DNA of 64,000 nt from Candidatus Scatosoma sp. (GCA_045128055.1 JBGVRC010000120.1:21133-85132), one strand, 5' to 3'. Shown: positions 2,274 to 61,994, numbered from the stretch's first letter. The notes: generated by a model from the letters alone, not told the origin. A program made the numbers and translations.

Positions 2274-3059
2274 TTATTTCAACCTGAAAAACAGCTCTTT
2301 TGCGTTTTGCAAAATGCGTTCTTTCAGCTCCTTTTCGTTTTCGTTGCGAAGCGCCGCCATATTTTCCACGACGTACTTCACGTTTTTCGGCTCGTTCGGG
2401 AAAGTACCCCTAAACGGCGCGGGGGTGAGATACGGACAGTCCGTTTCCGATAAAATGCGGCTACCAGGTACGCGTTGAACGCAATCCTGCGTCTTTTTCG
2501 CGTTTTTAAAGGTGGACGTACCGCCAAAGGAAAAGCTCAACCCAAGCTTTTCAAATTCCGCCATCATTTCCACGGAATACGAATAACAATGCATAAGCCC
2601 GCCGCGTTTTAATAAATGCTTGTGTTCTTGAAGCAAACAAAGAGTTTCCTGCGCGGCGTCGCGGCTGTGCAACACCACGGGCAAGCCCACTTCGTCCGCC
2701 AAAATAAGCTGACGGATAAACAAATCCCTTTGCACTTCCTTGGGCGGGTTGTCGTCGAAATGGTAATCCAACCCGATTTCCCCCACCGCCACGCACTTCT
2801 CGCGTGCGCACAAAGCGCGGATTTTGTCTAAATCTCCGTCGTTATACTTGGCAAGCTCGCTCGGATGAAAACCCGCGCAAAAATACAAGTTTTCAAAGCG
2901 GTCGCAAAGCTCGGCGCTTATTTTAGACGAAGCCAAGTCAAACCCCGAACAAATGATAATACCCACGCCGTTTTCTTGGGCGTTTTTTATAATTTGTTCT
3001 ACACCGCCAAGCTCGTTATATTCGTCGCCCGTCAAATGGCAATGTACGTCGATATACAT
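2274..3059 (-). CDS. tatD: TatD family metal-dependent hydrolase/DNase
   Basis: 261-aa ORF starting MYIDVHCHL (HxH metal motif); typical TatD/YabD length and position next to metG. Confidence 0.9.
   Translation of the reverse strand: MYIDVHCHLTGDEYNELGGVEQIIKNAQENGVGIIICSGFDLASSKISAELCDRFENLYFCAGFHPSELAKYNDGDLDKIRALCAREKCVAVGEIGLDYHFDDNPPKEVQRDLFIRQLILADEVGLPVVLHSRDAAQETLCLLQEHKHLLKRGGLMHCYSYSVEMMAEFEKLGLSFSFGGTSTFKNAKKTQDCVQRVPGSRILSETDCPYLTPAPFRGTFPNEPKNVKYVVENMAALRNENEKELKERILQNAKELFFRLK
2457..2479 (+). repeat. dispersed motif M01 (TACCAGGTAC class)
   Basis: GCGGCTACCAGGTACGCGTTGAA; core 15/15; in tatD, antisense. Confidence 0.85.
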
Positions 3060-3062
3060 AGC

Positions 3063-5090
3063 TTAACCAAGACGAGTGCCGCTCAAAACGTCCTTGTTTT
3101 CAGGCACGATCAAGGACAAAACGCCGTTTTCGTCTTCCGCCGCCATAATCATACCTTCGGACACGACGCCGCATACCTTTCTGGGCGCAAGGTTGGTGAC
3201 GAACACCACTTTTTTGCCTACCATTTCTTCGGGTTTGAAATGCTTTGCAATCCCCGAAACGATGGTGCGCGTTTCATCGCCGAATTTCACCGTTTCTTTC
3301 AAAAGCTTGGACGATTTGGGTACGGGCTCGCACGCGATAATTTCCCCTACGCGCAATTCCACTTTTAGAAAATCGTCAAAGGAAATTTCGGGCGTTTTTT
3401 CTTTTTCTTCTTCATTTTCCACACCCGTGTCCGTATTCACCGCATTTTCAGCGGGTTTTTGTTCGGTTGCTTGCGGAGCGGTTTTCGCCATTTCCGCCGC
3501 GTATGCCGCCGCTTGTTCTTCACGGATTTTTTCGATTGCAGGCGCAAGCGTCTTGAAATCCAAGCGCGCAAACAAGGGGGAAATCGCCGTCACCGTTACG
3601 CTGTCGCGAAGCGCAAAGCTTTCGCATTCTTCCAGCGTTCTGCTTACCCCGCCGTATGCCGCGAAGATTTTTTCGCTCGTTTCCGGCATAAAGCTGTCCA
3701 AAAGCGAAGCGCCGATTTGGATTGCTTCGGCAAGGTTATACAACACGTCGTTAAGACGCGCTTTCTTTGCTTCGTCCTTGGCGAGCGCCCAAGGCATCGT
3801 TTCATCGATGTATTTATTCGCACGGCGGAAAAGAGCAAACACTTCGCTGATTGCATCCGCAATACGCAATTCGTCCGCTTTCGCACGTACTTTGGATACA
3901 ACGCCCGTCACCGTTGCTTTAAATTCCGCGTCGGGATCTTCTTCGTTTGCAGGCAATGATTTTACAACCGTACCGCCGAAATATTTATCAATCATCGCAA
4001 TCGTACGGCTGACAAGGTTACCCAAAACGTTGGCAAGCTCGGTGTTGAAACGTTCGGTTACAAGTTCCCAAGTAATGGAACCGTCGTTGTCAAACGGCAT
4101 TTCGTGCAATACGAAATAGCGCACAGCATCCACCCCGAACAAACGCGCCAAATCATCCGCGTAAATCACGTTGCCTTTGGATTTACTCATTTTACCATCG
4201 CCTTGCAAAAGCCAAGGGTGGCCAAACACCTGCTTGGGCAAAGGTTCACCCAAAGCCATCAAGAAAATAGGCCAGTAAATGGTGTGGAAACGCAAAATAT
4301 CCTTACCGATAAGATGCAAATCCGCAGGCCAGTATTTTTTATATTTTTCGTCGTGGTTGCCATCCACGTCAAAGCCGATACCCGTGATGTAGTTGGTTAA
4401 GGCATCCAACCAAACGTATACAACGTGACGGCTGTCAAATTCTACGGGCACGCCCCACGTAAAGGACGTACGGGATACGCACAAATCCTGCAACCCCTTT
4501 AAAAGGAAGTTGTTCATCATCTCGTTTTTACGGGAAACGGGCTGAATAAACTCGGGATGGGTGTTGATATGCTCGATAAGCTTGTCCGCATACTTGCTCA
4601 TTTTAAAGAAGTACGCTTCTTCCTTCGCAGGCTTTACGTCCCTGCCGCAGTCGGGGCATTTCCCGTCTACAAGCTGGCTTTCCGTCCAGAAGGATTCGCA
4701 AGGAGTACAGTACATACCTTCGTAGTAGCCCTTGTAAATATCCCCTTGGTCGTAGAACTTCTTAAAAATTTTCGACACTTGTTTCACGTGATACTCGTCC
4801 GTCGTACGCATAAATTTATCGTACGAAGTGCCCATCAAGTCCCAAATGCCTTGGATATCACCCGCGATTTTATCCACGAAAGCCTGCGGCGTTACGCCTG
4901 CCGCTTCCGCTTTTTCCTGAATTTTTTGACCGTGTTCGTCCGTACCCGTTTGGAAGAAAACGTCATAGCCTTCCTTTCTTTTAAAGCGCGCGATCGCGTC
5001 CGCCAAAATCGCTTCGTAGGTGTTGCCGATGTGGGGCTTGCCCGAAGTATACGCAATCGCCGTCGTAATATAATAAGGTTTCTTTGCCAT
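3063..5090 (-). CDS. metG: methionine--tRNA ligase with C-terminal tRNA-binding domain
   Basis: 675 aa; class I HIGH-type motif (GKPHIGN) and KMSKS present. Confidence 0.95.
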   Translation of the reverse strand: MAKKPYYITTAIAYTSGKPHIGNTYEAILADAIARFKRKEGYDVFFQTGTDEHGQKIQEKAEAAGVTPQAFVDKIAGDIQGIWDLMGTSYDKFMRTTDEYHVKQVSKIFKKFYDQGDIYKGYYEGMYCTPCESFWTESQLVDGKCPDCGRDVKPAKEEAYFFKMSKYADKLIEHINTHPEFIQPVSRKNEMMNNFLLKGLQDLCVSRTSFTWGVPVEFDSRHVVYVWLDALTNYITGIGFDVDGNHDEKYKKYWPADLHLIGKDILRFHTIYWPIFLMALGEPLPKQVFGHPWLLQGDGKMSKSKGNVIYADDLARLFGVDAVRYFVLHEMPFDNDGSITWELVTERFNTELANVLGNLVSRTIAMIDKYFGGTVVKSLPANEEDPDAEFKATVTGVVSKVRAKADELRIADAISEVFALFRRANKYIDETMPWALAKDEAKKARLNDVLYNLAEAIQIGASLLDSFMPETSEKIFAAYGGVSRTLEECESFALRDSVTVTAISPLFARLDFKTLAPAIEKIREEQAAAYAAEMAKTAPQATEQKPAENAVNTDTGVENEEEKEKTPEISFDDFLKVELRVGEIIACEPVPKSSKLLKETVKFGDETRTIVSGIAKHFKPEEMVGKKVVFVTNLAPRKVCGVVSEGMIMAAEDENGVLSLIVPENKDVLSGTRLG

Positions 5091-5238
5091 AAAAACAGCT
5101 CCTTTTTCACATTTTCCACCCCATTATACACCATTTTACTTAAAAAGTAAAATGATTTTCCCCCGTGCAAAGCAAAAGAGCCGCCCCTTTCCCCCTATCT
5201 TTCTTCATTTTTTCGGCTTTTTTCGCATATAGTATGCT

Positions 5239-5865
5239 ATGAATACCATTTTTGTTCTTCTTTTTTTGATTTCCACCTTTTTACTGCTTCTTTTTTCGCC
5301 CACCGCCTTTCTTTCCGCTATGCTGGACGGAGCAAGCAAAGCCGCCCTTTTATGCGTTTCGCTCGTCGCTACCTATTCCGTATGGATGGGGCTTATGAAA
5401 GTATGGGAAGACAGCGGCTTGGCGCGCGGCGTTTCCCGCATTTTAAAACCGATTGCGCGGCGTATTCTAAAAACGGACGACGAAGAAGCCATCGAAACGG
5501 CTTGTATGAGTTTTTCCGTCAATATGCTGGGCATTTCAGGCGCGGCAACCCCGTACGGTATCAAAACCGCGCAGCTTTTAGACAAAACGGAAAACGCGGA
5601 ATACTCTTCCGCTATGTTTTTCGTGCTAAACGCCACTTCCTTGCAAATTTTACCGTCTTCCCTTGTCGCCGTGCGCCTTGCGATGGGCAGCGCCGCCCCC
5701 AACGACATTATCCTGCCCACCCTAATCGTCAGCGTCTTTTCCACCCTTTTGGGTGCTTTGCTCACACGGGTGTTGATAAAACCCCAACCCAAACGAAAAA
5801 CAAGCCAAAAAAAAGACTTCATTTTACATAAAAATATAAAAATGCCGGGGGCAGGTACGCGATGA
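5239..5865 (+). CDS. spmA: spore maturation protein A (nucleoside-recognition domain membrane protein)
   Basis: 208-aa polytopic ORF resembling SpmA; overlaps spmB by ATGA. Confidence 0.8.
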   Translation: MNTIFVLLFLISTFLLLLFSPTAFLSAMLDGASKAALLCVSLVATYSVWMGLMKVWEDSGLARGVSRILKPIARRILKTDDEEAIETACMSFSVNMLGISGAATPYGIKTAQLLDKTENAEYSSAMFFVLNATSLQILPSSLVAVRLAMGSAAPNDIILPTLIVSVFSTLLGALLTRVLIKPQPKRKTSQKKDFILHKNIKMPGAGTR

Positions 5866-5866
5866 A
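5844..5866 (+). repeat. dispersed motif M02 (G-run class)
   Basis: GCCGGGGGCAGGTACGCGATGAA; 15/15; forms the spmA stop / spmB start. Confidence 0.9.
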
Positions 5867-6377
5867 ATTTGTTTTACCTATTATTATCCCCCTTATTTTT
5901 TTACTTTCCTTCGCCTTTGCCGCCATTAGAAAAGTGCGGGTGTACGATTCGTTCGCGGAAGGGGTAAAAGGCGCGATTCCGCTTATTTTATCCATTTTTC
6001 CATACATAGCCGTCATCAGCATTCTTTCTAAATTGTTGGAAGTGAGCGGTTTGGGCGCAAAAATCGCCGATTTTCTATCCCCCGTCTTTCATTTTACGGG
6101 TATCCCCGAAGAAATCGCTCCGCTTCTGCTCGTAAAACCCCTTTCGGGGGGCGGCAGCGTCGCCGTTTTGTCGGAAATTTTAGAAAGGTACGGCGCGGAT
6201 AGCTATATTTCCCGTTGCGCTTGCGTAATCTACGGCGCGTCCGAAACGATTTTTTACGTCGGCGCGGTGTATTTTGCGGGCTTAAAACGCAAAAAGTTAA
6301 ACGTCGCTTTGATAATCGCCGTTCTTTCTTTTCTTGCTTCCGCCATTTTCGCTTGTTTTTTATGTCGTTTTTTATAA
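5862..6377 (+). CDS. spmB: spore maturation protein B
   Basis: 171-aa membrane ORF translationally coupled to spmA. Confidence 0.8.
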   Translation: MKFVLPIIIPLIFLLSFAFAAIRKVRVYDSFAEGVKGAIPLILSIFPYIAVISILSKLLEVSGLGAKIADFLSPVFHFTGIPEEIAPLLLVKPLSGGGSVAVLSEILERYGADSYISRCACVIYGASETIFYVGAVYFAGLKRKKLNVALIIAVLSFLASAIFACFLCRFL

Positions 6378-6474: not shown

Positions 6475-9400
6475 ATGAAAAAATGGCTTTCTATTTTGGC
6501 GTTATCGGCGATTTTTGCGTTGGTAGGCTGTAACGGTACGGGCGCGAGCAACTCTAACAGCTCCACCCCCGACAATCCTTCTTCCAGCCAACAAAGCTCG
6601 CCTTTGGATAGCTCCGAAATCGACCCCGACCACGTACACGCCAACCAAAACGGCGACGCTTATTGCGACGGCTGCGGCACGCCGATTTTGGCTACCTTGG
6701 ACGTTTTTTCCATCAACGACTTACACGGTAAGTTTTCCGACACCGACGAAAACTGCGGCGTAGACGAAATGACGACCTTCCTTCGCAATAAACAGCAAGC
6801 CAACCCCAACACCGTGATTTTATCGGCTGGGGATATGTGGCAGGGCAGCCCTGAATCCAACCTTACCTACGGCAATATCATTACCGAATGGATGAACGAT
6901 TTGGGCTTTGCCGCGATGACGCTTGGCAATCACGAATACGACTGGGGTGAAGAATACATCTCGCAAAACGCCGAGCTGGCAAACTTCCCCATTTTGGGTA
7001 TCAACGTGTTTGACCCCGACACCAACGAACGGGAAGAATACGCCGCTCCGTCCGTTTTGATTGAAAGAAGCGGCGTTAAAATCGGTATTATCGGCGCAAT
7101 CGGGGATTGTATGTCGTCCATCGCCCCCGATAAAACGACGGACGTATATTTCAAAACGGGCAACGAGCTCACCAACCTTATCAAGGACGAATCCACTTCC
7201 TTGCGCGAACAAGGCGCGGATATCATCATCTACACCGTGCACGATTCGGAAAACTCCAACGAATCGTATTACGACGTAGAGCTTTCCAACGGCTACGTGG
7301 ATTTGGTATTTGAAGGCCATTCCCACTCTACCGTTCGCCAAAAGGATAAATACGGCGTATGGCATTTGCAGGCGGGCGGCGACAATGGCACGGGGCTTTC
7401 CCACGCGGAAATTAAAATCGACATCATTTCGGGTGCAATCACCGTTGCGCAAACCAAAATCGTCGAACACAGCGCCTATCTCCACCTTGACGACGACCCC
7501 ATCGTAAACGAATTGATGGAAAAATACGCCGACCAAATCTCCAAAATGAACGAGTATTTGGGTATGAACGACAGCTATCGAAACTCGGACGCTTTGGCAA
7601 GCTACGCGGCGGAAGCTATGTTCAACGTCGGGTACGCGCATTGGAACAGCGACGCGCGCTATGCAGGCAAAATCGTACTCGGCGGCGGGTTCTTAAACGT
7701 GCGCAGCCCGTACAAGCTGGACGCGGGCAAAGTCACCTACGGCGATATTTACCCCCTGTTCCCGTTCGATAACCTGCTCGTGCTTTGTAAGGTAAACGGA
7801 AATCGACTTTTGGAACAGTTTATTTACAGCTCTAACTACGTTTGCTATTACGGCGAAGACGGCAACCAAATCAAAAACAACGTACAAAACAACGAAACGT
7901 ACTACGTAATCGTAGACACCTATTGCGCAAACTATAACTTTAAGGGCATGGGTTGGCTGGAAATCGTCGAATATTACCAAGACAACTATTATACGCGCGA
8001 CGCGCTCGCGCAGTTTATTAAGGACGGGGGTATGTCCGCGAAATCCGCTGACAAAACGAGTACCATTCCCGAGCTTCTCGACCTTGGTTTTAGCTTGGCA
8101 GACAACGAAGAAACCAAGGAAAAATACCGTACCGTCGGCAAAATCGTCGCTTTGGAAAACACCACCTACGGCAACGCGGTCATTGAAGATGAAGACGGCA
8201 ACCAAATCTACGTCTACGGTATGTACGATACCGACCGCAACCGCTACGACGCGATGGCAACCAAGCCCCAAGAAGGGGACGTCGTCACCGTAGAAGGGGT
8301 GATTAAAAACTTCGTCAACGCCTATTACGGGCAAAAAATCGAATTTGTCAACGCCACCGTTTTGGAAATTCAAGACGACTTCCCGGGCAACGATAAAGAC
8401 GACCCCTTAACCCCGCCTGAAACGGATGCAAACTACACCCCCATTCGCGAAATTTTAGAAATCGGCAACGCGCTTCCCGAAGGCGGCGAAACCACGGAAA
8501 GCTATATCATTAAAGGTACGCTTACAAGCAACCCCACCCACCCCTACGGGAATATGTACGTTCAAGACGAAAACGGCGACGCCCTTTATATCTACGGTCT
8601 GTACGACGTAAACGGCAATCGTTACGACGCGATGGCAACCAAGCCCCAAATGGGCGACGAAGTCGTTTTGCAGGGCGTAATTAAAAACTATTACAACAAA
8701 TCGGGCGAGCAAATCATCGAAATGATAAGCTCCACCCTTTTGGAAATCGTTGACGATACGCCAAACGGCGACACACCCGATACACTTTCCACGCTTACCT
8801 TAAATAAAAACTTCGGCGGCGACCTTTCCGAATACGACACGGGTACGTACGGACAAGGCGCGGTTGGCGGCGTGTATTTCGAATATTATCGCGCCTATAA
8901 AACCTTTGGCGAAAATCTCGTAACCAGCCTGCTCCCTTCCCCCGGCGAGCTGTCGGTAGGTCACGCGGAAGGCGCGCTGTACAACACTACCCCTATCTAC
9001 GGCATACAGTCCATTTCTATCACCTATAAAAGCGACTCGGCGGCTATTTTGTACACAAGCGACGATAGAATTGCGGACGCAACGGCGTACACCCTGCCCA
9101 AAGCTACGTCCTTCCAAACGATAAGCTTTGAAGTGGATACGGACAATTTCTTTAAAATTATCACGGGCAACTCCACCCTTTCCTTGCAGGAAATTTCCAT
9201 TTCCTACACCGACGAAGCAGTAGCCTACAACACCCAAAAACAGCTTTCGGGAATAGAAGCTTTCCGCTTGAACCCCACCACCTTTGAAGGTACGCTCGTT
9301 GCGGGGCAAAGCTCCGTTTCCGTACCCGTAAAAGTAGAATATGACGGGGGCAGGTACGAGATTAAGCAAACAAAGACCTATACCTACTACACCGTAGAAT

Positions 9401-12614: not shown

Positions 12615-12650
12615 ATCCCCTTTGGTTCAATACCAAAGGGGATTTCTTAT
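12615..12650 (+). terminator. intrinsic terminator
   Basis: ATCCCCTTTGG-loop-CCAAAGGGGAT followed by a T-rich run. Confidence 0.75.
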
Positions 12651-12673
12651 TCAACACGTACCTGGTACGCCTG
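12650..12673 (-). repeat. dispersed motif M04 (GTACCTGGTAC class)
   Basis: + strand reads TTCAACACGTACCTGGTACGCCTG; 14/15; intergenic, right after a terminator. Confidence 0.85.
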
Positions 12674-12766
12674 TTTTTATTTTTTACATGATAAAAGACC
12701 GCCCTAAAGGCGGCCTTTATTATATTCTATACAAAACGGTGTAATTAGATATAGATTAAAGTTGCC

Positions 12767-14382: not shown

Positions 14383-15090
14383 TTATTCTTCCGTTTTTAC
14401 GTTTTTAATCGTAGGCAAAATTTCCACGCTCGGTTTACCGCCCTTCACCCCTTCAATCATAACCAAATAGGGCTTCAACTCGTCCCTGCCCCCCACAAAT
14501 TGCATTTTCTTCACTTCAATATTGTATTTTTTAAGGGTGTAGCAAACTTCCGCTATCCTGTCCGCCCGATGCAACATACAAAGCCTACCGCCAAACTTCA
14601 AAGCCCTGCCCGCCGCTTGGGCTATATCGGACAAAGTAATGGTGATTTCCTTGCGGCAAATGGCTTTTTTATACTCGCTGCTGTCAAAACCGTCGTTTGC
14701 GCGCTCGTACGGGGGATTGCATAAAATCAAGGAAAAGCTTTCGTTGTATTTTTTAGGCAAATCCTGCAACCGACCCTGCTCAAAGGTAAAATTATCAAAC
14801 CCGTTATATTGCGCCGTCTTTTGCGACAAAGCGGACAACTCTTCTTGCAGTTCGAACAAAGTAAATCGCAAATTTTTCTTATTCTTATTCAAAGCGTAAA
14901 AATGAAAGGCGACGATACCGCTTCCCGCGCAAAAATCCGCTACGTTTTCATTATTTTTCGCCTTTGCAAACCGCGAAAGCAACACGGAATCGGACGTAAA
15001 CCGATACAAGCACGTATCCTGCACGATTTTCAGCCCGTCTAAAAGCATATCTTCCAACACTTCATATTCGCCAAGCGTAAATTCTTCCAT
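14383..15090 (-). CDS. YabB-like N6-adenine methyltransferase (tRNA m6A37-type)
   Basis: NPPY motif (LILCNPPYE); start moved to MEEFTLGEY (ATG 15090) with GGAG RBS; the ORF-track extension to 15180 lacks an RBS. Confidence 0.75.
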   Translation of the reverse strand: MEEFTLGEYEVLEDMLLDGLKIVQDTCLYRFTSDSVLLSRFAKAKNNENVADFCAGSGIVAFHFYALNKNKKNLRFTLFELQEELSALSQKTAQYNGFDNFTFEQGRLQDLPKKYNESFSLILCNPPYERANDGFDSSEYKKAICRKEITITLSDIAQAAGRALKFGGRLCMLHRADRIAEVCYTLKKYNIEVKKMQFVGGRDELKPYLVMIEGVKGGKPSVEILPTIKNVKTEE

Positions 15091-15211
15091 TTCTCGCTCC
15101 TTTTCTTCTCTCCGTTTCAGTATATCACGCTCCGCATCTTTTGTCAAGCCCGTCCGCGCCCGCAGGGCAATTCCACGCATACTTTTCTACAAAATCACCC
15201 ACGCTATTTCC

Positions 15212-20606: not shown

Positions 20607-21260
20607 ATGGAATATTCCTTTCATATATATAATAAGCTCGCCGCCGACGGCGTTACTATGTCCGCAGAAAAACTCTTACGCGAAGCTTTTCAACGGAAAA
20701 AAGACAAAATGACGGGGGCAGGTACGCGTTCAAACGAAAAAAATAGTGATTTTACACCCCAAGCAACCGCAAAAAACGAAGCCCCGCCCCCCGTCGTCGT
20801 TTGCGTGGGGAGCGACCTTGCCATCGGGGATAGCTTAGGCCCTATTTGCGGCTCTCTTTTAAAATACAAAACACAGGGGGTCCAATGCTTTTTGTACGGC
20901 ACGCTCGCCGCCCCCGTCACCGCAAAAGAAATTAAATATATGCGCTCCTTTTTAAAAAAGACCCACCCAAATAGCCCGATTTTGGCAATCGACGCGGCGG
21001 TGGGGGAGAAAGGGGACATCGGCGTTATCCGCGTCACCGACTCCCCCTTGTTTCCAGGCGCAGGCGCAAATAAGCAGCTCGGCAGTCTTGGCGACGTGTC
21101 TATTTTGGGTATCGTAGCCGAAAAATCGGTAACAAACTACGGCATTTTAAACACTACCCGATTGAATTTGGTGTATACCATGTCCGAGATTATTTCCGAA
21201 GGGGTGTCCGCTTTGCTTTGGGAGCAGGCAGGAAAATCCACTTACTTGCAAAATGCGTAA
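20607..21260 (+). CDS. yyaC: sporulation protein YyaC (GPR-like protease fold)
   Basis: 217 aa; VCVGSDLAIGDSLGPICG core typical of YyaC; about 60-aa variable N-terminal extension. Confidence 0.8.
   Translation: MEYSFHIYNKLAADGVTMSAEKLLREAFQRKKDKMTGAGTRSNEKNSDFTPQATAKNEAPPPVVVCVGSDLAIGDSLGPICGSLLKYKTQGVQCFLYGTLAAPVTAKEIKYMRSFLKKTHPNSPILAIDAAVGEKGDIGVIRVTDSPLFPGAGANKQLGSLGDVSILGIVAEKSVTNYGILNTTRLNLVYTMSEIISEGVSALLWEQAGKSTYLQNA
20711..20733 (+). repeat. dispersed motif M07 (G-run class)
   Basis: GACGGGGGCAGGTACGCGTTCAA; 15/15; sense in yyaC (TGAGTRS). Confidence 0.9.
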
Positions 21261-24704: not shown

Positions 24705-24711
24705 TTTTTCA

Positions 24712-42422: not shown

Positions 42423-42432
42423 GGTAGCCCCC
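42409..42432 (-). repeat. dispersed motif M16 (CATG class)
   Basis: - strand reads GGGGGCTACCATGTACGCGCCGAA; 13/15; contains the engB SD and start codon. Confidence 0.75.
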
Positions 42433-42446
42433 TTTTGTAAAATTCG

Positions 42447-47565: not shown

Positions 47566-49086
47566 TTATCCGCGTAAAAGCTGCGCGTTGGCGGGCAGAG
47601 CAGACGGCTCTTTTTCTTCGCCGCGGACGGTGAAATAATTTTCTTTATACGTTTTGTGGGGGATAAAATACACTCGTTTGTCCGCCCAGCGCGTTCGGGC
47701 TTCGATTGTCAGCAAGCCTTCGTTTAAAATCTTTTGCATAATGTTTTGGTTAAGCTCTACCACGACGGTATCGAAACCGTCGGCAAAGCAATCGAGAATA
47801 CTCGCGCGCATTCGCGTAATCACGAAAATGTCTTCGTGTACGTACGCCATACCTTGACAATGCGGGCAGGGTTTTACCAAATACGAATGGGCGTCGTGTC
47901 CTACTCTTTTGCGGGTAAACTGCGTAATACACAGCTCGCTCATGGGCAAAACGTTGCATTTCGCTTTGTCCGCGGAGAGCTTTTCACGGAGCTTTTCGGT
48001 GACGGCTTCGCGGTGCGCTTCGTCCGCCATATCGATAAAATCCACCACGACGATGCCGCCGATATTACGCAGGCGAACCTGTCTTGCGATTTCTTCCGCG
48101 GCGGCGAGATTGACGGCGAACACGGTGTCTTCCAAATTGTCGCTGCCGACGTAGCCGCCCGTATTTACGTCCACGACGGTCATAGCTTCGGTGGGCTCGA
48201 TGACGATATGCGCGCCGTTTTCCAAGGGCACGATGGGGTCTGCCGCGCCGTAAACCAGCGGGGAAATCCCATATTCTTTCATCATAGCTCTGTCGCCGTT
48301 GTGGAAAACGAGCTTGCTTTCGGGAATATCTTTTCTAAGGTTGATAAGACGGAGCAAACGCTCGTACAATTCCTTATCCCCTACGTGAATGGCGTCAAAA
48401 TCTTCGCCGTACGAATCGCGCATTACGCGGGCGGGCAAATCGTCGTCTTCATACAAAAGCGTGCCGATTTCCGCTGTTTTGGACAAAGCGTTCATATCCG
48501 CGTAAAGCTGTTTTAAATAAGCGGCTTCCGCTTGGATTTGTTCGTCGGAAGCGAAGGGGGCTTGGGTGCGCACGATAAAGCCTTCGTCCTGTCTTTCGCG
48601 CAGGTTATCCACCTTTTGCAAAAGCGTTTGACGGGTAGCTTCGTCGGTGATTTTTCTGGAAATGCCCAAAAAGTTTGTCGTGGGCATATAAATGACGAGC
48701 TTACCAACGAAAGAAAGGTGGGTAGTGACCTTTGCGCCCTTGTTGCCGCGGGGCGGTTTTACCACCTGTACGATAATCTCGTCCCCTTCTTTAAGTTGCA
48801 TCGAATTTACGTTTAACGCGGACATGGTACCGTCATATTTGGTATGGTCGGCGTACGTTTCGTCCATAGACAGGTAACAATTTTTATCCAAACCGCAGTG
48901 GATAAAGGCGGCGTTCATACCCGAAAGCACGTTGACGACCTTGCCTTTATAAATACTGCCGACGCTGGTTGCTCTCGGTTCGAACTCGCAGGAAAATTCC
49001 ATCAATTTTCCGTCTTCTACCAAAGCGGCGAACTGCTGGCCGCAATATCTATCTAAAAACCATTCTGTCTTTATCTTCGTTGACAT
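47566..49086 (-). CDS. rng: Rne/Rng family ribonuclease (RNase G-like)
   Basis: 506 aa; S1 domain (GSIYKGKVVNVLSGMNAAFI) and the VVVDFIDM catalytic region. Confidence 0.88.
   Translation of the reverse strand: MSTKIKTEWFLDRYCGQQFAALVEDGKLMEFSCEFEPRATSVGSIYKGKVVNVLSGMNAAFIHCGLDKNCYLSMDETYADHTKYDGTMSALNVNSMQLKEGDEIIVQVVKPPRGNKGAKVTTHLSFVGKLVIYMPTTNFLGISRKITDEATRQTLLQKVDNLRERQDEGFIVRTQAPFASDEQIQAEAAYLKQLYADMNALSKTAEIGTLLYEDDDLPARVMRDSYGEDFDAIHVGDKELYERLLRLINLRKDIPESKLVFHNGDRAMMKEYGISPLVYGAADPIVPLENGAHIVIEPTEAMTVVDVNTGGYVGSDNLEDTVFAVNLAAAEEIARQVRLRNIGGIVVVDFIDMADEAHREAVTEKLREKLSADKAKCNVLPMSELCITQFTRKRVGHDAHSYLVKPCPHCQGMAYVHEDIFVITRMRASILDCFADGFDTVVVELNQNIMQKILNEGLLTIEARTRWADKRVYFIPHKTYKENYFTVRGEEKEPSALPANAQLLRG
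48812..48835 (-). repeat. dispersed motif M17 (CATG class)
   Basis: - strand reads TGACGGTACCATGTCCGCGTTAAA; 13/15; sense in rng. Confidence 0.7.
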
Positions 49087-49255: not shown

Positions 49256-50227
49256 TTAAGGCAAATATACGTCTTTTTCAACCATTTCTCGTATTGGGGT
49301 GTACGGAGAAGGGGCTTTTTCGAACAAAGCGGCGAGTTTGTTTTGGGGTAAATTGCAAAGGTGGCGCTCTTTTTCGTCGTAAATTTCAAGCACCAAATAG
49401 CTGCCGCGGGATAAAAACCGAAAAACGTCTTTTACGGGGCAGCTTGCCAAAACGGCGACGCGGCGTATCTCTATCCCCCGTTTTAGCGGTTGATTTTGCG
49501 CGAAATCGATGCGGGAGTAGACGGCGGCTTTGTCCTTGTTGCCCAAAAACCCCGCAAAGAGAAACACGGAGAACACGAGCAGGCTGAAATTTGGATTTTT
49601 TTGAACGCACGAAACAAGAAAAAAGCCCGATAGGCAAAGGGAAAAAGCCAAGGTTAGAAAACGGCAAAATTTTTCCGCTTTTTCTTCTGCCAAGGTGACG
49701 TCCGCGTGTTTTTTCGATAGCATTTTCGCGAGCGAGCATTTTAAAATTCTGCCCCCGTCCAAGGGGTAGGCGGGCAGTAAATTTACAATCGCGATAGCGA
49801 GCGAAGAATGGAAAGCTACGTCCGTGAACGCGTACATGGTAGGGACAAACCACCACAAAGCGACGAAAAATACGGCGGTTATAAAATTGCAAAGCGGGCC
49901 GCAAAGCGCGACGATAATTTCGTCTTTGAGAGAAATCCCCCTTAAATCCCCGTCGATAACCGCACCAAAGGGCATAAGTACGACGCGGTTGAGTTTATAG
50001 CCTAATTTGGCGGCGGCGTAGGCGTGCGCGAGCTCGTGCTGAATGGCGACGAGAGCGGAGAGAAAGAATAAAAACAACTCCCCCGTGAAGGCGTACCAAA
50101 CTCCGACCAGCCAAAAGAGCGGATGGACGCGAAAAAGGCGGGTTTTTCTTTTTTTGGGATAAGAAAAAGAGCGGTTTTGCCGCCCGTTTTCTCGTCTTGA
50201 TGGTTTGTTGTTTTGAAATGCGCGCAT
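49256..50227 (-). CDS. spoIVFB: M50 site-2 protease, SpoIVFB-like
   Basis: HELAHA zinc motif and NLLPAYPLDGGR motif; ATG overlaps the upstream stop as TAATG; the 92 N-terminal codons in the ORF track were rejected. Confidence 0.75.
   Translation of the reverse strand: MRAFQNNKPSRRENGRQNRSFSYPKKRKTRLFRVHPLFWLVGVWYAFTGELFLFFLSALVAIQHELAHAYAAAKLGYKLNRVVLMPFGAVIDGDLRGISLKDEIIVALCGPLCNFITAVFFVALWWFVPTMYAFTDVAFHSSLAIAIVNLLPAYPLDGGRILKCSLAKMLSKKHADVTLAEEKAEKFCRFLTLAFSLCLSGFFLVSCVQKNPNFSLLVFSVFLFAGFLGNKDKAAVYSRIDFAQNQPLKRGIEIRRVAVLASCPVKDVFRFLSRGSYLVLEIYDEKERHLCNLPQNKLAALFEKAPSPYTPIREMVEKDVYLP
49824..49847 (-). repeat. dispersed motif M18 (CATG class)
   Basis: - strand reads TGTCCCTACCATGTACGCGTTCAC; 14/15; sense in the spoIVFB-like gene. 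Confidence 0.8.
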
Positions 50228-51129
50228 TATTCCACCCACGCAAGGGAATTTTCCGCTGTAATTTGATAGCAGTTGAGCAAAACGCCGCCCGAATACATCG
50301 TCATTTGCACTTCCGTTTCCCCCGTTGTATACCCGACGGGCACGTTGCTTTTTACTTCGTCGCCCACTTGATAATATATATGGCTGAGCCCGCTGATAAT
50401 CCCCGTAAAAGAGTCGGAGTGGTTGATTTTTAAGGTGTATGTGCCGTCCGCGTTTTGGTACGCTTCGCTCACCGTGCCTTCGACCGCAGGATAGACGCAG
50501 CAATCGTCTTTAAAGGAAAGAATACCTGCGGCGGAAAGGGAAAGCTCTGCGTCGGAAAGCTCGGATACCACGGGCGAGAGCTTGAAATCGGAGTACGAGC
50601 GGTTGTCGACGGTGGCAACCGTTGCGTTGGGGTTGTTCATCGCGCGGAAAAAGGTGTTTACCGCGCTGTTGGGTAAAAATACGTTGGTCAAAAAGATAGC
50701 GCCGCAAAGCGCGCAGGCGATCGCGAACTCTGTGCCAAGCGTGACGCGGACGGCTTTTTGCGCCCGCGTTTCTTCGTTCATCGCGTACCTGCCCCCTTCA
50801 TTTTCTTTATAATCGAACGCATATTCTTCTTCAAAGGCGGCTTTGCGTTCTTGCTCGTCGGCAAAAAGTCGAACGGTGTCGATGCGGTCGGGAACGGCGT
50901 CGAAGGAAATAGAGCCTTCGCTGTTCGCGCCTTCCGCAAATGCGTCCGCGTCCACGGAAAGGGCGGTTTGCGTTTCTTCCACGCGGTTGTTCACCTGCCG
51001 TATCACGCTGTCTTTTAAGGGTGCGGTTTGTTCTAAGCGCGCTTTTTTACGGCGGCTTTTCTTGCGGATAATATTGACGGTGGATACAGGGATTTCTAAC
51101 ATTTCGGCGTATTCTATTTCTTCGTGCAT
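50227..51129 (-). CDS. spoIVFA: SpoIVFA-like membrane protein with degenerate M23/LytM domain
   Basis: 300 aa; one TM; C-terminal LytM-like beta domain; translationally coupled to the M50 protease. Confidence 0.6.
   Translation of the reverse strand: MHEEIEYAEMLEIPVSTVNIIRKKSRRKKARLEQTAPLKDSVIRQVNNRVEETQTALSVDADAFAEGANSEGSISFDAVPDRIDTVRLFADEQERKAAFEEEYAFDYKENEGGRYAMNEETRAQKAVRVTLGTEFAIACALCGAIFLTNVFLPNSAVNTFFRAMNNPNATVATVDNRSYSDFKLSPVVSELSDAELSLSAAGILSFKDDCCVYPAVEGTVSEAYQNADGTYTLKINHSDSFTGIISGLSHIYYQVGDEVKSNVPVGYTTGETEVQMTMYSGGVLLNCYQITAENSLAWVE
50777..50800 (-). repeat. dispersed motif M19 (G-run class)
   Basis: - strand reads TGAAGGGGGCAGGTACGCGATGAA; 15/15; sense in the spoIVFA-like gene (EGGRYAMN). 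Confidence 0.9.
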
Positions 51130-51257: not shown

Positions 51258-51971
51258 TTAATGATTTTTGTGACAATGTTCGAAATACCAGCACCTATAC
51301 GGGGCTTCGCAATGCACGCCAACGGAAACGTTTGGCATTATTGCGTCCTTTTTCTTGATTTTACCAAGCTCGAAAATACGCTCGCTCGCCATTTTTTGAT
51401 AGGGCTTTATCGCGTTGGTTACGTCGATAATACGATAGCGGAAGCCGTTGCTTTCCATATACGTCGCGGTGTGTTCAAAATCGTCTTTTACCGCGTCTTG
51501 GGGCGGTTCGTCCCCGCGCAAAACAAGGTGTACTCCCTTTAAAGAAACGCCGCATTTTTGCAGGATGAAGGCTTGAAAACCAAGGTCGGTCAAAAAGGCT
51601 TCGCGTGCGTAAAAAGTGTTCTTCACTTCGTACATGGTATAGCCGTTTCCCGTTTTTCGTAAAATATCGGCAGCGCAAAAATTGCCGTACCACGTAAACG
51701 AGCCTTCGCAAATAACGGGGGTTTGTTTTTCGATAAGCTCTTGGGTTTTGGCGATCATAGCGGCGTAGTTCAGCCTGCCGTCGTCGCGAAGCGTAGTGGT
51801 TTCGGTGTACTCGCCGAAAATACCCATAGCGGCGTCGCCAAACGCGTTGCCCGCGTCTAATTTTTCTTGGATTTCAGGCGGAATAATTTTCAGCTCGGGC
51901 GCGTGCGCGTCCAACCAAAGCATTTTTTCGCATTGTAAGCCGCGGACAAAGTCCGTTTTGGAAATAGGCAT
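51258..51971 (-). CDS. DUF2779-like PD-(D/E)xK nuclease-fold protein with C-terminal Cys cluster
   Basis: Start MPISKTDFVRGLQCEKMLWLD (AAGGAAG RBS); C-terminal CEAPYRCWYFEHC. Confidence 0.7.
   Translation of the reverse strand: MPISKTDFVRGLQCEKMLWLDAHAPELKIIPPEIQEKLDAGNAFGDAAMGIFGEYTETTTLRDDGRLNYAAMIAKTQELIEKQTPVICEGSFTWYGNFCAADILRKTGNGYTMYEVKNTFYAREAFLTDLGFQAFILQKCGVSLKGVHLVLRGDEPPQDAVKDDFEHTATYMESNGFRYRIIDVTNAIKPYQKMASERIFELGKIKKKDAIMPNVSVGVHCEAPYRCWYFEHCHKNH
51621..51644 (-). repeat. dispersed motif M20 (CATG class, degenerate)
   Basis: - strand reads GGCTATACCATGTACGAAGTGAAG; 12/15; sense in the DUF2779-like gene. Confidence 0.5.
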
Positions 51972-52109
51972 AAGCGTTTCTTCCTTTTGCGGGGGCGTTC
52001 CCCTTTTCGTGTAATTAGTATAGCTCTTTTTCTGGTTTTTGTCAAGAAAAAGGGCGGCAAGAAAACCCAGCCGTCCTTTTTCAAGGTAAATAAGTTGAAA
52101 ACGCAAAGA

Positions 52110-52847: not shown

Positions 52848-53642
52848 TTATCCGTTTTTGTGCTGTCTGCCGTTATGGTCGATATAGTAATCGTCCGTAT
52901 AAATCAATTCGCTGATGGGAACAAAGGTAAAACCGCGGTTTTTCAAGGTGGAAAATATCAAGGGCAGAGCCTTGGCGGTGTGTAGGCCGTTGTTATGGCA
53001 AAGAATAATCGAACCGTTTTTCGCGCTGTTGATAATCCGCATAGCGATCTCCGTTGCGGATAAATTTTTCCAGTCCAGCGAGTCCACGTCCCATTGAATC
53101 GGATACAAGCCCATTTCGCGGCAGGTGTCGATAAGTAGATTGTTATAATCCCCGTACGGGGGACGAAAAAGCGTAACCTTTTGCTTAGTGATTTCTTCAA
53201 TCGCTTTTTTGGAAGTAGTTAGCTCGTCTACGATTTGTTCTTTGGTTAGGGTACTCATATACGGATGGGTGCGGCTGTGCGTACCCATTTCGTGGCCGTT
53301 CGCTACGATTTTTTCTACGTATTCCGGGTATTTTTTCACCCAAAATTCCACGGCGAAAAAGGTGCAGCGCACGTCGTTTTGTTGCATAACGTTAAGTAGT
53401 TCGTCCGTGTGGTCCACTCCCCACGCGCAATCGAAGCTGATGGCGATTTTCTTTTCTTCTATTTCCACCGAATAAATGGGCAGAGAACGGCTTGAACTCG
53501 TACCTGCCCCCGTCGTTTGTGAATTCGGCGCAACCAAATTGACGCAATAGGCGATGACGTAAATCACGCTTAAAAGAGCGGCGAAAACGAGCGTGGACAT
53601 AACAAAAGCCGCTGAAAAACGGCGTCGGATTTGTTTGGGCAT
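52848..53642 (-). CDS. polysaccharide deacetylase (PdaB-like, sporulation type)
   Basis: 264 aa; NodB motifs FDCAWG, HSRTHP and RPPYG; N-terminal TM anchor. Confidence 0.85.
   Translation of the reverse strand: MPKQIRRRFSAAFVMSTLVFAALLSVIYVIAYCVNLVAPNSQTTGAGTSSSRSLPIYSVEIEEKKIAISFDCAWGVDHTDELLNVMQQNDVRCTFFAVEFWVKKYPEYVEKIVANGHEMGTHSRTHPYMSTLTKEQIVDELTTSKKAIEEITKQKVTLFRPPYGDYNNLLIDTCREMGLYPIQWDVDSLDWKNLSATEIAMRIINSAKNGSIILCHNNGLHTAKALPLIFSTLKNRGFTFVPISELIYTDDYYIDHNGRQHKNG
53492..53515 (-). repeat. dispersed motif M21 (G-run class)
   Basis: - strand reads CGACGGGGGCAGGTACGAGTTCAA; 14/15; sense in the deacetylase gene (TGAGTSS). Confidence 0.85.
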
Positions 53643-54669: not shown

Positions 54670-54693
54670 TTCAACGCGTACCTGGTACGGTCA
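54670..54693 (-). repeat. dispersed motif M22 (GTACCTGGTAC class)
   Basis: + strand reads TTCAACGCGTACCTGGTACGGTCA; 15/15; 5 nt after the lrp/asnC stop. Confidence 0.9.
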
Positions 54694-54714
54694 TTTTGAC
54701 GAAAGGACACGATT

Positions 54715-59390: not shown

Positions 59391-60716
59391 ATGTTGCGTG
59401 AGATTTTAACGAAAAAAGAAATTTTAAAAAATTGCAAAATTTTTCGGATGCTTGCTACGCAAGCGGAAAAGGAACACGCGTCTTTTCACACGCCCGGGCA
59501 TAAGGTACACGGCTTTGACATCACCGAGCTGTCCTATTCGGACAATCTTTCCAGTCCCAAGGGCTGCATTTTGGAAGCGGAAAGGGACGTAGCGGAAATT
59601 CTTGGCGCGCGCAGAAGTTTTCTTTTGACGGACGGCAGCACTTGCGGTATTTTGTCTATGCTGTACGCGGCAAAGCAGCTCGGTGCGAAAAATATCGCCT
59701 TTTGCGAAAGCACCCATAAAAGTGTTTTCAACGGTTGCGCGGCGCTGGGCTTGACCCCGCTTGTCTATACGTCGTCAAAACGGGAAGAAATCCCGTTTGC
59801 CCCTACCATGTCCGTGTTGAGCGAGAAAAATGGTGACATTTTTGCCGCAGCGGACGCGATTTTATTTACGTCGCCCGACTATTACGGAAACGTAGCCGAT
59901 TTGCGCGGCGCAAGGGAATTTTGCGACAAGAACGGTAAAATTTTGCTTGTGGACGGCGCGCACGGCGGGCATTTACATTTTGAAAAGGAACTGCACGCGG
60001 GTAGCTATGCGGATATGTGGGTGGACGGCGTGCATAAGAGCCTGCCTGCTTTGACGCAGGGCGCGATCGTATCGGCAAAAAGCGAAAAATTTGCCCAAGC
60101 CTTGCAAAAGGGCGTGGATATTTTTCGCACCACCAGCCCGTCTTATCCGATTATGGCGTCTGTGGAATACGCGGTGAAATATCCCCGTAAAGTTACCTTG
60201 GAAAAACGAGTAAACTTGTTTAAAAAGAGATACGCGCGTATTTATCAAAACGACGATTGGACAAAGCTTTGCGCGCGGTTTGGTAAGCACGCCTTTCAAG
60301 TGGAAAAAATCTTGGAAGAAGAAGGGATTTTTGCGGAGTTTTGCGACGGGAACGTATTGATGTTTTATTTATCCCCTGCGACGAGAATGCAGGATTTTGA
60401 TAGATTAAAAACCCGTTTGACCGAGCTGTTTGTTCAATTCCCCGATTATGAGCCCAAAAAGAGCAAAAAAGAGAATGAACTCGACCCTGCCCCCCTTGTT
60501 TTTGATAAAAATGCGGAAACGGAGTGGGTGGATATGGACGGAGCGGAAGGCAGAATTTGCGCGAATAACTGCGGGTTGTTTCCCCCGTGTACGCCGCTCA
60601 TTTTGCAGGGCGAAAGGATAGAAAAAGAAAAGCTGCGGCTAATGCGGCAGGCGAACAACCTATTCGGTGTTCAAGACGGCAAAATTTTGGTGTTAAAAAA
60701 CAAGGATAAGGAATAA
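59391..60716 (+). CDS. Orn/Lys/Arg decarboxylase-family PLP enzyme (YaaO-like)
   Basis: 441 aa; HTPGHK start region and VDGVHKSLPALTQGA PLP-lysine motif; upstream of tmk as yaaO is in B. subtilis. Confidence 0.8.
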   Translation: MLREILTKKEILKNCKIFRMLATQAEKEHASFHTPGHKVHGFDITELSYSDNLSSPKGCILEAERDVAEILGARRSFLLTDGSTCGILSMLYAAKQLGAKNIAFCESTHKSVFNGCAALGLTPLVYTSSKREEIPFAPTMSVLSEKNGDIFAAADAILFTSPDYYGNVADLRGAREFCDKNGKILLVDGAHGGHLHFEKELHAGSYADMWVDGVHKSLPALTQGAIVSAKSEKFAQALQKGVDIFRTTSPSYPIMASVEYAVKYPRKVTLEKRVNLFKKRYARIYQNDDWTKLCARFGKHAFQVEKILEEEGIFAEFCDGNVLMFYLSPATRMQDFDRLKTRLTELFVQFPDYEPKKSKKENELDPAPLVFDKNAETEWVDMDGAEGRICANNCGLFPPCTPLILQGERIEKEKLRLMRQANNLFGVQDGKILVLKNKDKE

Positions 60717-60719
60717 ATT

Positions 60720-61349
60720 ATGGAAAAACGCGGAAAATTTATTACTTTTGAAGGTTGCGAAGGTTGTGGAAAGAGCACGCAGGTGCGCCTTTTTAATGAA
60801 TATTTGGCAAAGAAAGGCATACCGCACATTTTCACGCGTGAGCCCGGCGGGGAAAAGATTTCGGAAGAAATCCGCCGCATTTTACTCGACGCGAATAACG
60901 CGGAAATGACAAGCGAATGCGAAGCCTTGCTTTACGCCGCTTCGCGCGTACAGCATTTAAACGATAGAGTAGAGCCTGCATTGGCGGCTGGGAAGATAGT
61001 CGTTTGCGACAGATACGTCGATTCTTCGCTCGCCTACCAAGGCTATGGCCGTGGGCTTGGCGTGGAGTTTGTCAGCGGCGTAAACGCGTACGCTTTGCAA
61101 AACTATATGCCCGACGTGACGATTTTTATCGATCTTTCCCCCGAAGCGGCGTTTAAAAGAAAGCACGGCGCGGACGAAAACGATAGACTGGAACAGGCGG
61201 GAATGCCCTTCCATCAAAGGGTTTACGACGGGTTTAAGAAGCTTGCGGCGGCGTACCCGAATCGTTACGTCTGCGTAGACGGCAATCAAACGCCTGATGA
61301 AATTTTTGCGGAAGTTTTGGCGGTTTTACAGGAAAGAAACTGCTTATAA
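60720..61349 (+). CDS. tmk: thymidylate kinase
   Basis: 209 aa; FEGCEGCGKST P-loop and DRY motif. Confidence 0.95.
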   Translation: MEKRGKFITFEGCEGCGKSTQVRLFNEYLAKKGIPHIFTREPGGEKISEEIRRILLDANNAEMTSECEALLYAASRVQHLNDRVEPALAAGKIVVCDRYVDSSLAYQGYGRGLGVEFVSGVNAYALQNYMPDVTIFIDLSPEAAFKRKHGADENDRLEQAGMPFHQRVYDGFKKLAAAYPNRYVCVDGNQTPDEIFAEVLAVLQERNCL

Positions 61350-61358
61350 AGGATAGAT

Positions 61359-61994
61359 ATGACGGTTTTAGAAATTGTTTTAATCGGCGTGGCGCTTGCG
61401 ATGGACGCGTGCGCCGTAGCGATGACGGACGGAATGACCGATTCGAAAATGCCCTTTTGGAAGGTGCTGCGTATCGGTGTGTTCTTTGGGTTTTTCCAGT
61501 TCGCTATGCCCGTAATCGGGTATTTTATCACGGCGTTGATCGCGGACGTATTTTTGGATACTTTCCAACATATTTCCGCGTGGATTTCCTTTGCCTTGCT
61601 TGCCTTTTTGGGTGGGAAAATGCTGTTTGAATGTATCAGAGAAAAAATCAAGGAAAAACGCGAGAAGGGTGAAACGGACGGGGCAGGTACGTGTTCATGC
61701 TCCGCTTGTCAGCCGCAAACGGGGGTGTGGAAGCTCACGGTACAAGCGATTGCTACGTCTATTGACGCGTTGGCTGTGGGCGTAACCTTGCAGATGGCGG
61801 CAATCAATAAGGATTTGGCGCTTGGCGTATGGGGCGCGACGGGCGTAATCGGCGTGGTGACGCTTGGCTTGGCAATCGGCGCGGTGTATATAGGAAAGCT
61901 TGTCGGGAACAAGCTCGCGGACAAGGCGGGTATCGTCGGCGGGGTTGTCTTGCTGGGTATCGGCTTGAAGATTTTAATAGAGAGCTTTTTATAG
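61359..61994 (+). CDS. mntP: manganese efflux pump MntP
   Basis: 211 aa; duplicated DAxAV motifs (LAMDACAVAM, SIDALAVGV). Confidence 0.85.
   Translation: MTVLEIVLIGVALAMDACAVAMTDGMTDSKMPFWKVLRIGVFFGFFQFAMPVIGYFITALIADVFLDTFQHISAWISFALLAFLGGKMLFECIREKIKEKREKGETDGAGTCSCSACQPQTGVWKLTVQAIATSIDALAVGVTLQMAAINKDLALGVWGATGVIGVVTLGLAIGAVYIGKLVGNKLADKAGIVGGVVLLGIGLKILIESFL
61676..61698 (+). repeat. dispersed motif M23 (G-run class)
   Basis: GGACGGGGCAGGTACGTGTTCAT; 13/15; sense in the mntP central loop (DGAGTCS). Confidence 0.75.

Follow-up and report, generated by a model that had tools for sequence, protein, structure and literature searches.

A dispersed 28-nucleotide element at the centre of phased A-tracts in Candidatus Scatosoma and related gut Clostridia: a possible DNA uptake signal

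Copies of the element in a 64-kb window

We analysed a stretch of 64,000 nucleotides from Candidatus Scatosoma sp. (GCA_045128055.1 JBGVRC010000120.1:21133-85132; hereafter the window), a genus placed in Clostridia incertae sedis by the NCBI taxonomy, in which a short word recurs on both strands, inside and between genes. A preliminary description of this DNA had listed 23 copies of a 15-23 nt motif, and all 23 were recovered. The degenerate 15-mer CAKGTACGCGWTSAA has nine exact matches on the two strands of the 64 kb against 0.00 in 100 dinucleotide-preserving shuffles, which confirms the strong over-representation claimed earlier; at up to three mismatches there are 41 matches, where 8.55 +/- 3.1 are expected and the richest shuffle holds 18. 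A 28-column weight matrix that was trained on other genomes only and applied at a cut-off of at least 8 bits found 30 sites in the window and three in a reversed-sequence control. It added about four copies (412(-), 14474(-), 60475(-) and a weak one at 59807(+)), bringing the total to about 27. Words derived from the motif also head the list of the commonest 12-mers of the window. The 12-mer GAAAAAGCGGAA (six times) and AAAAAGCGG (15 times) are dispersed in the window as well; they contain AGCGG, the B. subtilis Chi word, and may reflect Lys/Ala/Glu coding.

Alignment of the copies gave an element of about 28 nt, AAAnGAC-GG(GGG or TAC)-CAKGTACGCG-WTGAA, with information spanning positions −13 to +14 relative to the C of CAKG. 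The core of the 15-23 nt motif was retained, but its A-rich 5′ part had been missed. Similarly, distinct 5′ contexts do exist, but instead of the three reported before we find two classes, each coupled to positions +1/+2 of the core: GGG is paired with CAGG in 93 of 98 copies, and xAC or xCC with CATG or CGTG in 26 of 37. The core is asymmetric and near-invariant over about 28 bp, and a single unit is not palindromic and has no hairpin inside. Coordinates below are those of the 28-nt element in the whole 64-kb stretch, unless a 15-mer start is stated. The plus-strand starts given in the preliminary description include an 8-nt 5′ extension, so that the 15-mer begins 8 nt later; its coordinates hold overall, with three or four positions (27082, 34805, 41514 and 51622) off by 1 nt. 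Among the weaker relatives it had mentioned, those at 14238 and 28303 are two-mismatch matches without the 5′ part that look like chance or ordinary conserved coding, and those at 1175, 52398, 54606 and 62191 were not recovered.

Many of the window copies lie in genes in the sense orientation. Among sense copies in general frame f1, in which WTG is a codon, is dominant and reads ..D G G R Y A L/M K/N, and frame f2 copies always carry TTC in place of TTG because TGA would be a stop codon there. Frame f1 is used by a two-mismatch copy at 9338..9365(+) in a gene for a 1141-aa metallophosphatase/nuclease, by an exact copy in a GerA linker (15417..15444(+)), by copies in an S1-domain loop of RNase E/G (48812..48839(-)) and, with one mismatch, in an M50 peptidase open reading frame (ORF) (49824..49851(-)), by an exact copy in an M23-like protein (50777..50804(-)), and by a weak copy (three mismatches, 16 bits) at 51622..51649(-) in ORF 51258..52106(-). 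Frame f2 is used by an exact copy at 20706..20733(+) in a DUF1256/YyaC-like gene, where TTC for TTG leaves no in-frame TGA, by a one-mismatch copy, again of the TTC form, in the N-terminal linker of a polysaccharide deacetylase (53492..53519(-)), and by two-mismatch copies in a variable loop of RqcH (40491..40518(+)) and in an MntP loop (61671..61698(+)). RqcH holds a second, exact copy in frame f0 (41501..41528(+)), which encodes RGGQVRDE. Two further sense copies lie in an rRNA adenine dimethylase gene (412..439(-), a weaker matrix hit of 21.4 bits; gene 189..1031(-), assigned with Pfam) and in a methyltransferase gene (14474..14501(-), 27.4 bits; gene 14383..15180(-)).

Antisense copies were found inside tatD (2452..2479(+), exact core, TAC class; gene 2274..3059(-)), a spore permease gene (17831..17858(-), one mismatch; gene 16793..17923(+)), queT (21626..21653(-), one mismatch; gene 21371..21898(+)) and ORF 59391..60716(+) (60475..60502(-), a weaker matrix hit of 18.4 bits). 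At two sites the motif supplies a start codon. The ATG of the exact copy at 5839..5866(+) (15-mer start 5852) starts ORF 5862..6377 and overlaps the TGA stop of ORF 5239..5865, both of them Gate-domain genes, and the ATG in the CATG of the copy at 42409..42436(-) is the first start codon of GTPase ORF 41754..42422(-). As the preliminary description had stated, the host proteins are unrelated and paralogy is excluded: their Pfam families include GerA, spore permease, DUF1256/YyaC-like, QueT, TatD, RqcH (NFACT), EngB-type GTPase, RNase E/G, M50 and M23 peptidases, polysaccharide deacetylase, MntP and metallophosphatase/nuclease.

The copies described next are intergenic. Two lie between convergent genes, a TAC-class copy at 12650..12677(-) flanked by two hairpins and an exact copy of the TAC/CATG class at 23241..23268(-) between two terminator-like hairpins. 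A tandem pair 31 nt apart occupies 24681..24739(-) upstream of holB, with an exact member at 24681 (43.2 bits) and a two-mismatch member at 24712. The one-mismatch copies at 27069..27096(+) (15-mer start 27082) and, downstream of jag, at 34792..34819(+) (15-mer start 34805) are each followed by a terminator. They belong to a module of about 70 nt, near-identical at 27073-27135 and 34796-34860, that consists of ACAAGCCACCAGGTATGCGATGAAATAGAAAAAACAG and then a terminator hairpin with a T-run; this is the sole case in the window of shared sequence beyond the 28-mer. Four copies of AACTTCAC, about 20 nt apart, lie at about 27000-27075(+), between a Gut-1 RNA and the motif copy, and a run of AAAGTGAAAAGTGAAAAAGTG, which is AACTTCAC on the opposite strand, lies at about 34745-34775(+) upstream of the sister copy 34805. 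The Gut-1 RNA (RF01706, 59.9 bits, E = 2e-9; 26880-26954(+)) directly follows a PSP1-domain gene and ends about 130 nt upstream of copy 27082. It was the only Rfam match in the window at the gathering threshold; no tRNAs were detected and nothing matched the motif. The exact copy at 54670..54697(-) sits in a 49-nt spacer between two plus-strand genes, an Lrp/AsnC-family regulator gene (54174-54665(+)) that ends 4 nt before it and an aminotransferase gene that starts 30 nt after it. Lrp-type proteins wrap DNA; the adjacency of Lrp/AsnC and motif is a single case. At 52110-52823(-) the window encodes a 237-aa protein in which the SSB domain covers residues 107-190 only; the N-terminal extension in front of it, about 100 residues long, matched no family.

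Distribution, placement and origin of the copies

The scan of sister genomes that had been proposed earlier was carried out with the 18-mer GACGGGGGCAGGTACGCG and one genome per species, and it shows the motif to be lineage-wide. At least 105 loci matched (retrieved loci are given L-numbers below). Among the matches listed, 83 loci have less than 57% GC, and nearly all of these are from Candidatus Scatosoma, which supplies the larger part, or from unnamed gut Clostridia/Eubacteriales. The carriers are uncultured organisms known as metagenome-assembled genomes, and those of low GC come from chicken, human, roe deer, sheep and goat. With at least 83 low-GC Clostridia loci carrying the motif, a local duplication confined to the window is excluded. 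The approximately 22 high-GC loci among the matches listed (Streptomyces and others) have a single match each, where about 17 are expected by chance for an 18-mer. The listed loci hold 182 copies at up to two mismatches, of which about 99 lie beyond the seeded copy, corresponding to about 0.16 per kb. Copies with zero, one and two mismatches number 57 : 66 : 59, whereas the corresponding sequence space is 1 : 45 : 945. A search of 2.9 million viral contigs returned one match, in 63%-GC DNA, for which chance is the best explanation, and a phage element was rejected on this ground.

Genes were called with a codon-usage gene finder built for this analysis, and placement was scored for 142 copies at up to one mismatch. 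Sense copies in genes number 64, antisense copies in genes 34 and intergenic copies 44, so that about 69% are genic and 31% intergenic in DNA of which 11% is non-coding. The window had given the impression that genic copies are all co-oriented with their genes (13:3), which the larger set did not bear out: the ratio there is 64:34, or roughly 59:21 once orthologous duplicates are removed. Antisense copies are kept across several species, one of them in nine genomes. The sense excess might be explained by tolerance for the encoded peptide, an explanation of our own. A conserved peptide or mini-ORF (ATG..TGA) was rejected, as copies occur in three frames and on both strands. One locus (L104, 2237-2380) has three copies 84 and 42 nt apart in one frame of one gene, forming a repeated peptide segment; it is the sole tandem coding array seen.

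Most intergenic copies are flanked by co-directional or convergent genes (about ten convergent, one or two divergent), often beside terminator hairpins, and a few form inverted pairs or alternating-orientation clusters at L036, L100, L061, L069 and L020. Several genes truly begin at the ATG, GTG or TTG of the motif, as in MKTVLVTGGVRGIG and VKYIIALDQGTTSSR and in the window copies 5852 and 42409. Translation-start regions can hold the word at little cost because it resembles an A-rich leader followed by a GGGGG Shine-Dalgarno sequence, a start codon and AAn; this use of the motif as ribosome-binding site plus start codon had escaped the preliminary description. Promoters of the sigma-70 (TTGAAn as −35), sigma-54, reverse-strand extracytoplasmic-function and SigI types were considered by inspection and set aside for misfits of spacing or hexamers, and inspection revealed no conserved −10 after the motif in intergenic copies. 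Comparison by eye gave no match to the known operators cre, the IHF consensus, the Spo0A box, RacA ram or Ter.

We also examined how the copies arose. RqcH aligned with B. subtilis RqcH has no insertion at either of its two copies; at the second (41501) RGGQVRDE stands where B. subtilis has RSSEPDEQ, with a 2-residue gap just upstream. RNase E/G aligned with E. coli RNase E likewise has no insertion at the motif. These alignments answer the question of insertion or recoding in favour of substitution, for the few copies examined (two in RqcH and one in RNase G, against solved homologues); orthologue alignments agree. A miniature inverted-repeat transposable element or other insertion was rejected on the same alignments. 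The earlier remark that coding copies sit mostly in linkers or poorly conserved loops is borne out by the four compared with homologues or orthologues (two in RqcH, one each in RNase G and GerA), all of which are in variable loops. We conclude from these comparisons that the motif appears to have been created in place, by substitutions in variable protein loops, in regions of translation start and in intergenic DNA, and not inserted.

Once present, strong copies persist. Some retrieved loci are syntenic with the window at 67-87% identity, and identity at orthologous sites is 86-96% within strong copies and 31-67% in their flanks; over all copies compared, motif identity is 78% and flank identity 64%. 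The GerA copy (15417) is identical at 27 of 28 bases in L047 beside deletions of 12 and 33 nt, with flanks that are 31% identical and carry large indels. The motif is also kept while the flanks diverge at 50777 (in L013 and L091, with flanks 54-55% identical), 53492 (in L013) and 20719, and the methyltransferase copy at 14474 is kept in L023 and L047. At 12650 and 54670 the 5′ class has switched between orthologues with CAGGTACGCG unchanged: the L023 orthologue of the former is of the GGG class, and the L013 orthologue of the latter has the core kept and a different 5′ class. The weak copies 17831, 21626 and 51622 are decaying across orthologues, the first of them in L047. The L001/L077 group gave no DNA-level match to window positions 1-5 kb and was left out of the analysis of gain and loss.

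The orientation of the motif was compared with the direction of replication. GC skew changes sign near 28 kb, and the window contains the origin-region genes rsmG, dnaN, yidC and jag along with two DnaA-box clusters. Copies are oriented 6 + / 6 - to the left of the skew switch and 4 + / 7 - to the right. The plot against replichore that had been suggested earlier is therefore negative: orientation is mixed on both sides, and there is no replichore polarity across the window's skew switch and origin genes. Since there is no strand reversal at the origin, a role like that of Chi, the FtsK-orienting polar sequences (KOPS) or the SpoIIIE recognition sequences (SRS) is excluded. Chi, KOPS, SRS and the cyanobacterial highly iterated palindrome HIP1 resemble the motif as over-represented words that are tolerated inside genes, but they are 5-8 nt long rather than 28; Chi, KOPS and SRS switch strand at the origin, and HIP1, an analogy drawn earlier, fits poorly as a perfect 8-bp palindrome without phased flanks.

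DnaA boxes number 43 in the window at up to one mismatch, against 9.9 expected. Eight perfect boxes (TTATCCACA) lie in 410 bp of non-coding DNA (19213-19622) between the gerA operon and a CvpA-like gene, an arrangement that looks oriC-type; no dnaA was seen among the annotated ORFs of the window. The second cluster (28478-29123; two perfect and four one-mismatch boxes) lies at the sign change of the GC skew, in the gap between rsmG (28108-28806(-)) and an ORF at 29327. Downstream of it a YpsA/SLOG-like gene, dnaN (29937-31043), yidC and jag follow on the same strand, an unusual gene order for an origin region. The low-GC, motif-poor segment from 24 to 40 kb was considered as a foreign island; this was rejected, as it holds the core genes rsmG, dnaN, yidC, jag, clpX, clpP and tig.

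Phased A-tracts on both sides of the motif

The most informative feature, and one missed in the preliminary description, lies outside the 28-mer. A+T content around the copies oscillates with a period of 11.6-11.7 bp (11.65) on both sides out to about ±85 bp. The peaks lie near −65.5, −53.8, −42.1, −30.4, −18.7 and −11 on the 5′ side and near +12.5, +21.3, +32.9, +44.6, +56, +68 and +79.5 on the 3′ side, and the oscillation has its symmetry centre at +1.2, on the W of the GTAC-CWG-GTAC dyad. Its Fourier amplitude is 0.046-0.051, whereas 200 random sets average 0.010 and peak at 0.016, and the signal is gone beyond +/-100 bp. Phasing resides in AA and TT steps, hence in A-tracts of either strand; AT and TA steps do not contribute.

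The arms are present around genic (n=75) and intergenic (n=38) copies, around antisense ones, in both 5′ classes and at two-mismatch copies, and they fade in three-mismatch matches, which are mostly chance. The window's 23 copies alone gave amplitudes of 0.046 and 0.070, values reached by 0 of 1000 controls. Taken singly, 72% of the sites have both sides in phase, compared with 25% of controls. Because phasing occurs at antisense and intergenic copies and is symmetric to 85 bp, it is a property of duplex DNA and not of RNA. The two-fold symmetric phasing of the A-tracts suggests that each copy centres about 170 bp of intrinsically bent DNA, and since the period exceeds the 10.5-bp helical repeat, the path would be superhelical rather than planar. 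As a DNA element the motif is real, far from random in its occurrence and spread across the lineage, and its extended architecture is unusual; we propose it as a putative recognition site at which a protein may bind pre-bent DNA.

Possible functions of the element

Our best guess, ranked first with a probability of roughly 0.4, is that the element may be a tag for uptake or transfer of self DNA that is kept by molecular drive. A surface DNA receptor of transformation, or of a related DNA-transfer apparatus, would prefer the core, and the phased A-tracts would let the duplex fold into a tight loop at the bound core. Preferential import and recombination of tagged DNA (molecular drive) would then spread and maintain hundreds of near-perfect copies in the genomes of the lineage. 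Copies would arise by point substitution where this is tolerated (variable loops, translation starts, intergenic DNA near terminators) and would subsequently be held near consensus across species. The distribution over mismatch classes, together with far more information than is needed for finding a site, argues for drive rather than site-by-site selection. Of the established mechanisms known to us, only biased uptake with recombination puts a long non-polar word into coding DNA through substitutions and then keeps the copies at consensus. An uptake or transfer tag is ranked first because of that mechanism and because the motif displays the sequence-level hallmarks of the uptake signal sequences (USS) of Pasteurellaceae and the DNA uptake sequences (DUS) of Neisseria.

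In these known systems the words arose through mutation and recombination and are not insertions. They are found in both orientations with a relative enrichment outside genes, form intergenic dyad pairs and show a strong reading-frame bias and a preference for poorly conserved residues; in A. pleuropneumoniae USS are mostly in the coding orientation (Findlay and Redfield, PMC2817400). Pasteurellacean USS also have AT-rich flanking segments centred 12 positions apart, which are thought to permit kinking of the DNA for uptake (Redfield et al., PMC1626085). All of the hallmarks tested were found here: over-representation, sharing within a clade, origin by substitution, both orientations without replichore polarity, non-coding excess, intergenic dyad pairs, frame bias, location at poorly conserved residues and AT-rich flanks at intervals of about 12 bp, counted from the core as well. 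The analogy to uptake sequences drawn in the preliminary description thus holds for the sequence-level properties tested. The motif shares with Pasteurellaceae USS (Hin-type AAGTGCGGT, Apl-type ACAAGCGGT) a hundreds-fold over-representation, clade-wide occurrence and stability at orthologous positions, and with that of A. pleuropneumoniae an excess on the coding strand. It differs in its core of about 28 bp rather than 9 bp, in its host, a spore-forming member of the Bacillota, and in kind by its two-fold symmetric, two-sided phased A-tracts. Neisseria DUS (GCCGTCTGAA, recognised by the minor pilin ComP) are similarly dispersed non-palindromic words, often in inverted pairs near terminators, clade-specific and maintained by drive, but they have no phased flanks and are mostly intergenic, with 34.5% in ORFs as opposed to about 69% genic copies here. 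We consider the element closest to uptake signal sequences among known systems, and apparently new: searches of the literature with the motif string and with Scatosoma found no description of it.

Several points weigh against an uptake tag. We know of sequence-specific uptake only in Pasteurellaceae and Neisseriaceae, and uptake by B. subtilis and S. pneumoniae is non-specific. The motif is sparser than USS/DUS, at about 0.4 per kb in the window and about 0.16 per kb beyond the seeded copy at the other loci, compared with roughly 1 per kb for USS/DUS in general and about 0.8 per kb for Pasteurellaceae USS. The deduplicated sense excess amounts to about 2.8 to 1. The phased arms comprise five to six repeats on each of two sides, whereas USS have two segments on one side and DUS none, and a symmetric footprint of about 170 bp looks more like that of a wrapping protein than a pilin contact. 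No competence genes are among the annotated genes of the window, in which no search aimed at competence genes or a receptor was made. A more specific version of the uptake proposal, to which we give slightly less credence than to the general one, is that the element is the first DNA uptake (self-recognition) signal of Bacillota, with a 28-bp receptor site as the apex of a segment of about 170 bp, along which A-tracts are phased at 11.65 bp in two-fold symmetry. The arms (about 85 bp, or roughly 29 nm, each) would pre-fold the duplex into a hairpin-like loop that is pulled through the cell envelope.

The footprint suggests a different function, the main rival, which we regard as possible but doubtful: a site for a protein that structures the chromosome or controls its topology (a lineage-specific nucleoid-associated protein, a disc of the Lrp type or a factor for positioning DNA gyrase), with about 170 bp wrapped at one site per 3-6 kb. 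Two-fold symmetric A-tract arms enclose a central block of about 28-36 bp, a layout like that of the 130-bp E. coli gyrase motif, in which a centre from −16 to +19 is bordered by periodic flanks to +/-63-66 (PMC6379681). The strong gyrase site of Mu and BIME-2, a class of bacterial interspersed mosaic elements (BIMEs), have a comparable two-fold symmetric build over more than 130 bp, in which a central block lies between periodic AT/GC flanks as a mark of wrapping. E. coli BIME-2 repeats are dispersed gyrase sites, and the orientation of our motif is indifferent to the origin. Moreover, positive supercoils build up at convergent gene ends, which the intergenic copies favour over divergent promoters. 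In contrast, the gyrase period is 10.75 bp in vivo and about 10 bp in footprints and in SELEX (systematic evolution of ligands by exponential enrichment), not 11.65 bp, its flanks extend to about ±65 bp rather than ±85 bp, and its centre is degenerate and read indirectly, unlike the asymmetric, near-invariant core described here. Repetitive extragenic palindromes (REP) and BIMEs are also palindromic and strictly extragenic. For wrapping proteins in general, selection that acts on many hundreds of sites one by one is unlikely to hold a consensus so closely that exact copies are about as numerous as two-mismatch ones (57 and 59), which drive achieves more easily, and no candidate protein was identified.

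Drive would also result from packaging and transfer, and the drive-type signatures that fit an uptake tag apply also to a pac-like signal of a domesticated phage-like particle or gene transfer agent, whose small-terminase-type ring would bind the core and wrap the flanks. A wrapped footprint of about 170 bp might suit such an oligomeric ring. This explanation is nevertheless improbable: apart from the one chance-like match in 63%-GC DNA the motif is absent from the viral contigs, phages use one pac site per genome and not one per 3 kb, and the gene transfer agents known to us package without sequence specificity. The excess of sense copies, the dominance of a frame with WTG as a codon and the genuine start codons within the motif would fit a role in RNA or translation, either as a shared initiation module (A-rich leader, GGGGG Shine-Dalgarno sequence, start codon, AAn) or as the site of an RNA-binding regulator. 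We consider this very unlikely given that a quarter to a third of genic copies are antisense, some of them kept in up to nine genomes, that copies occur between convergent genes beyond the terminators, that symmetric phasing extends to 85 bp on both sides of antisense and intergenic copies too, and that there is neither an Rfam match nor a hairpin within the unit. Hardly any weight is left for mobility, either as a miniature mobile element or as a repeat of the REP/BIME type that a transposase has spread. A few intergenic clusters of alternating orientation (L100, L036) do recall BIMEs, and the 27082 and 34805 copies share their 70-nt motif-plus-terminator module, but the majority of copies are genic, protein alignments lack an insertion at the motif, and the copies have no target-site duplications, no conserved sequence beyond 28 nt and no palindromic unit.

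If the element is an uptake tag, it would be a third, independent case of such signals, in Gram-positive gut spore-formers, and would indicate that self-biased gene exchange evolves repeatedly; uptake signals had not been reported from spore-forming Bacillota in the literature that we searched. Natural competence would be expected in this uncultured lineage, and the tag could serve to track recombination in gut metagenomes. If the element is instead architectural, it would be the most sharply defined DNA-wrapping position known in bacteria and would offer a handle on chromosome organisation every few kilobases. On either reading, the coding sequences of this lineage are shaped by a 28-nt word and, around it, by A-tract phasing over about 170 bp, which constrains protein-coding DNA strongly and in an unusual way.

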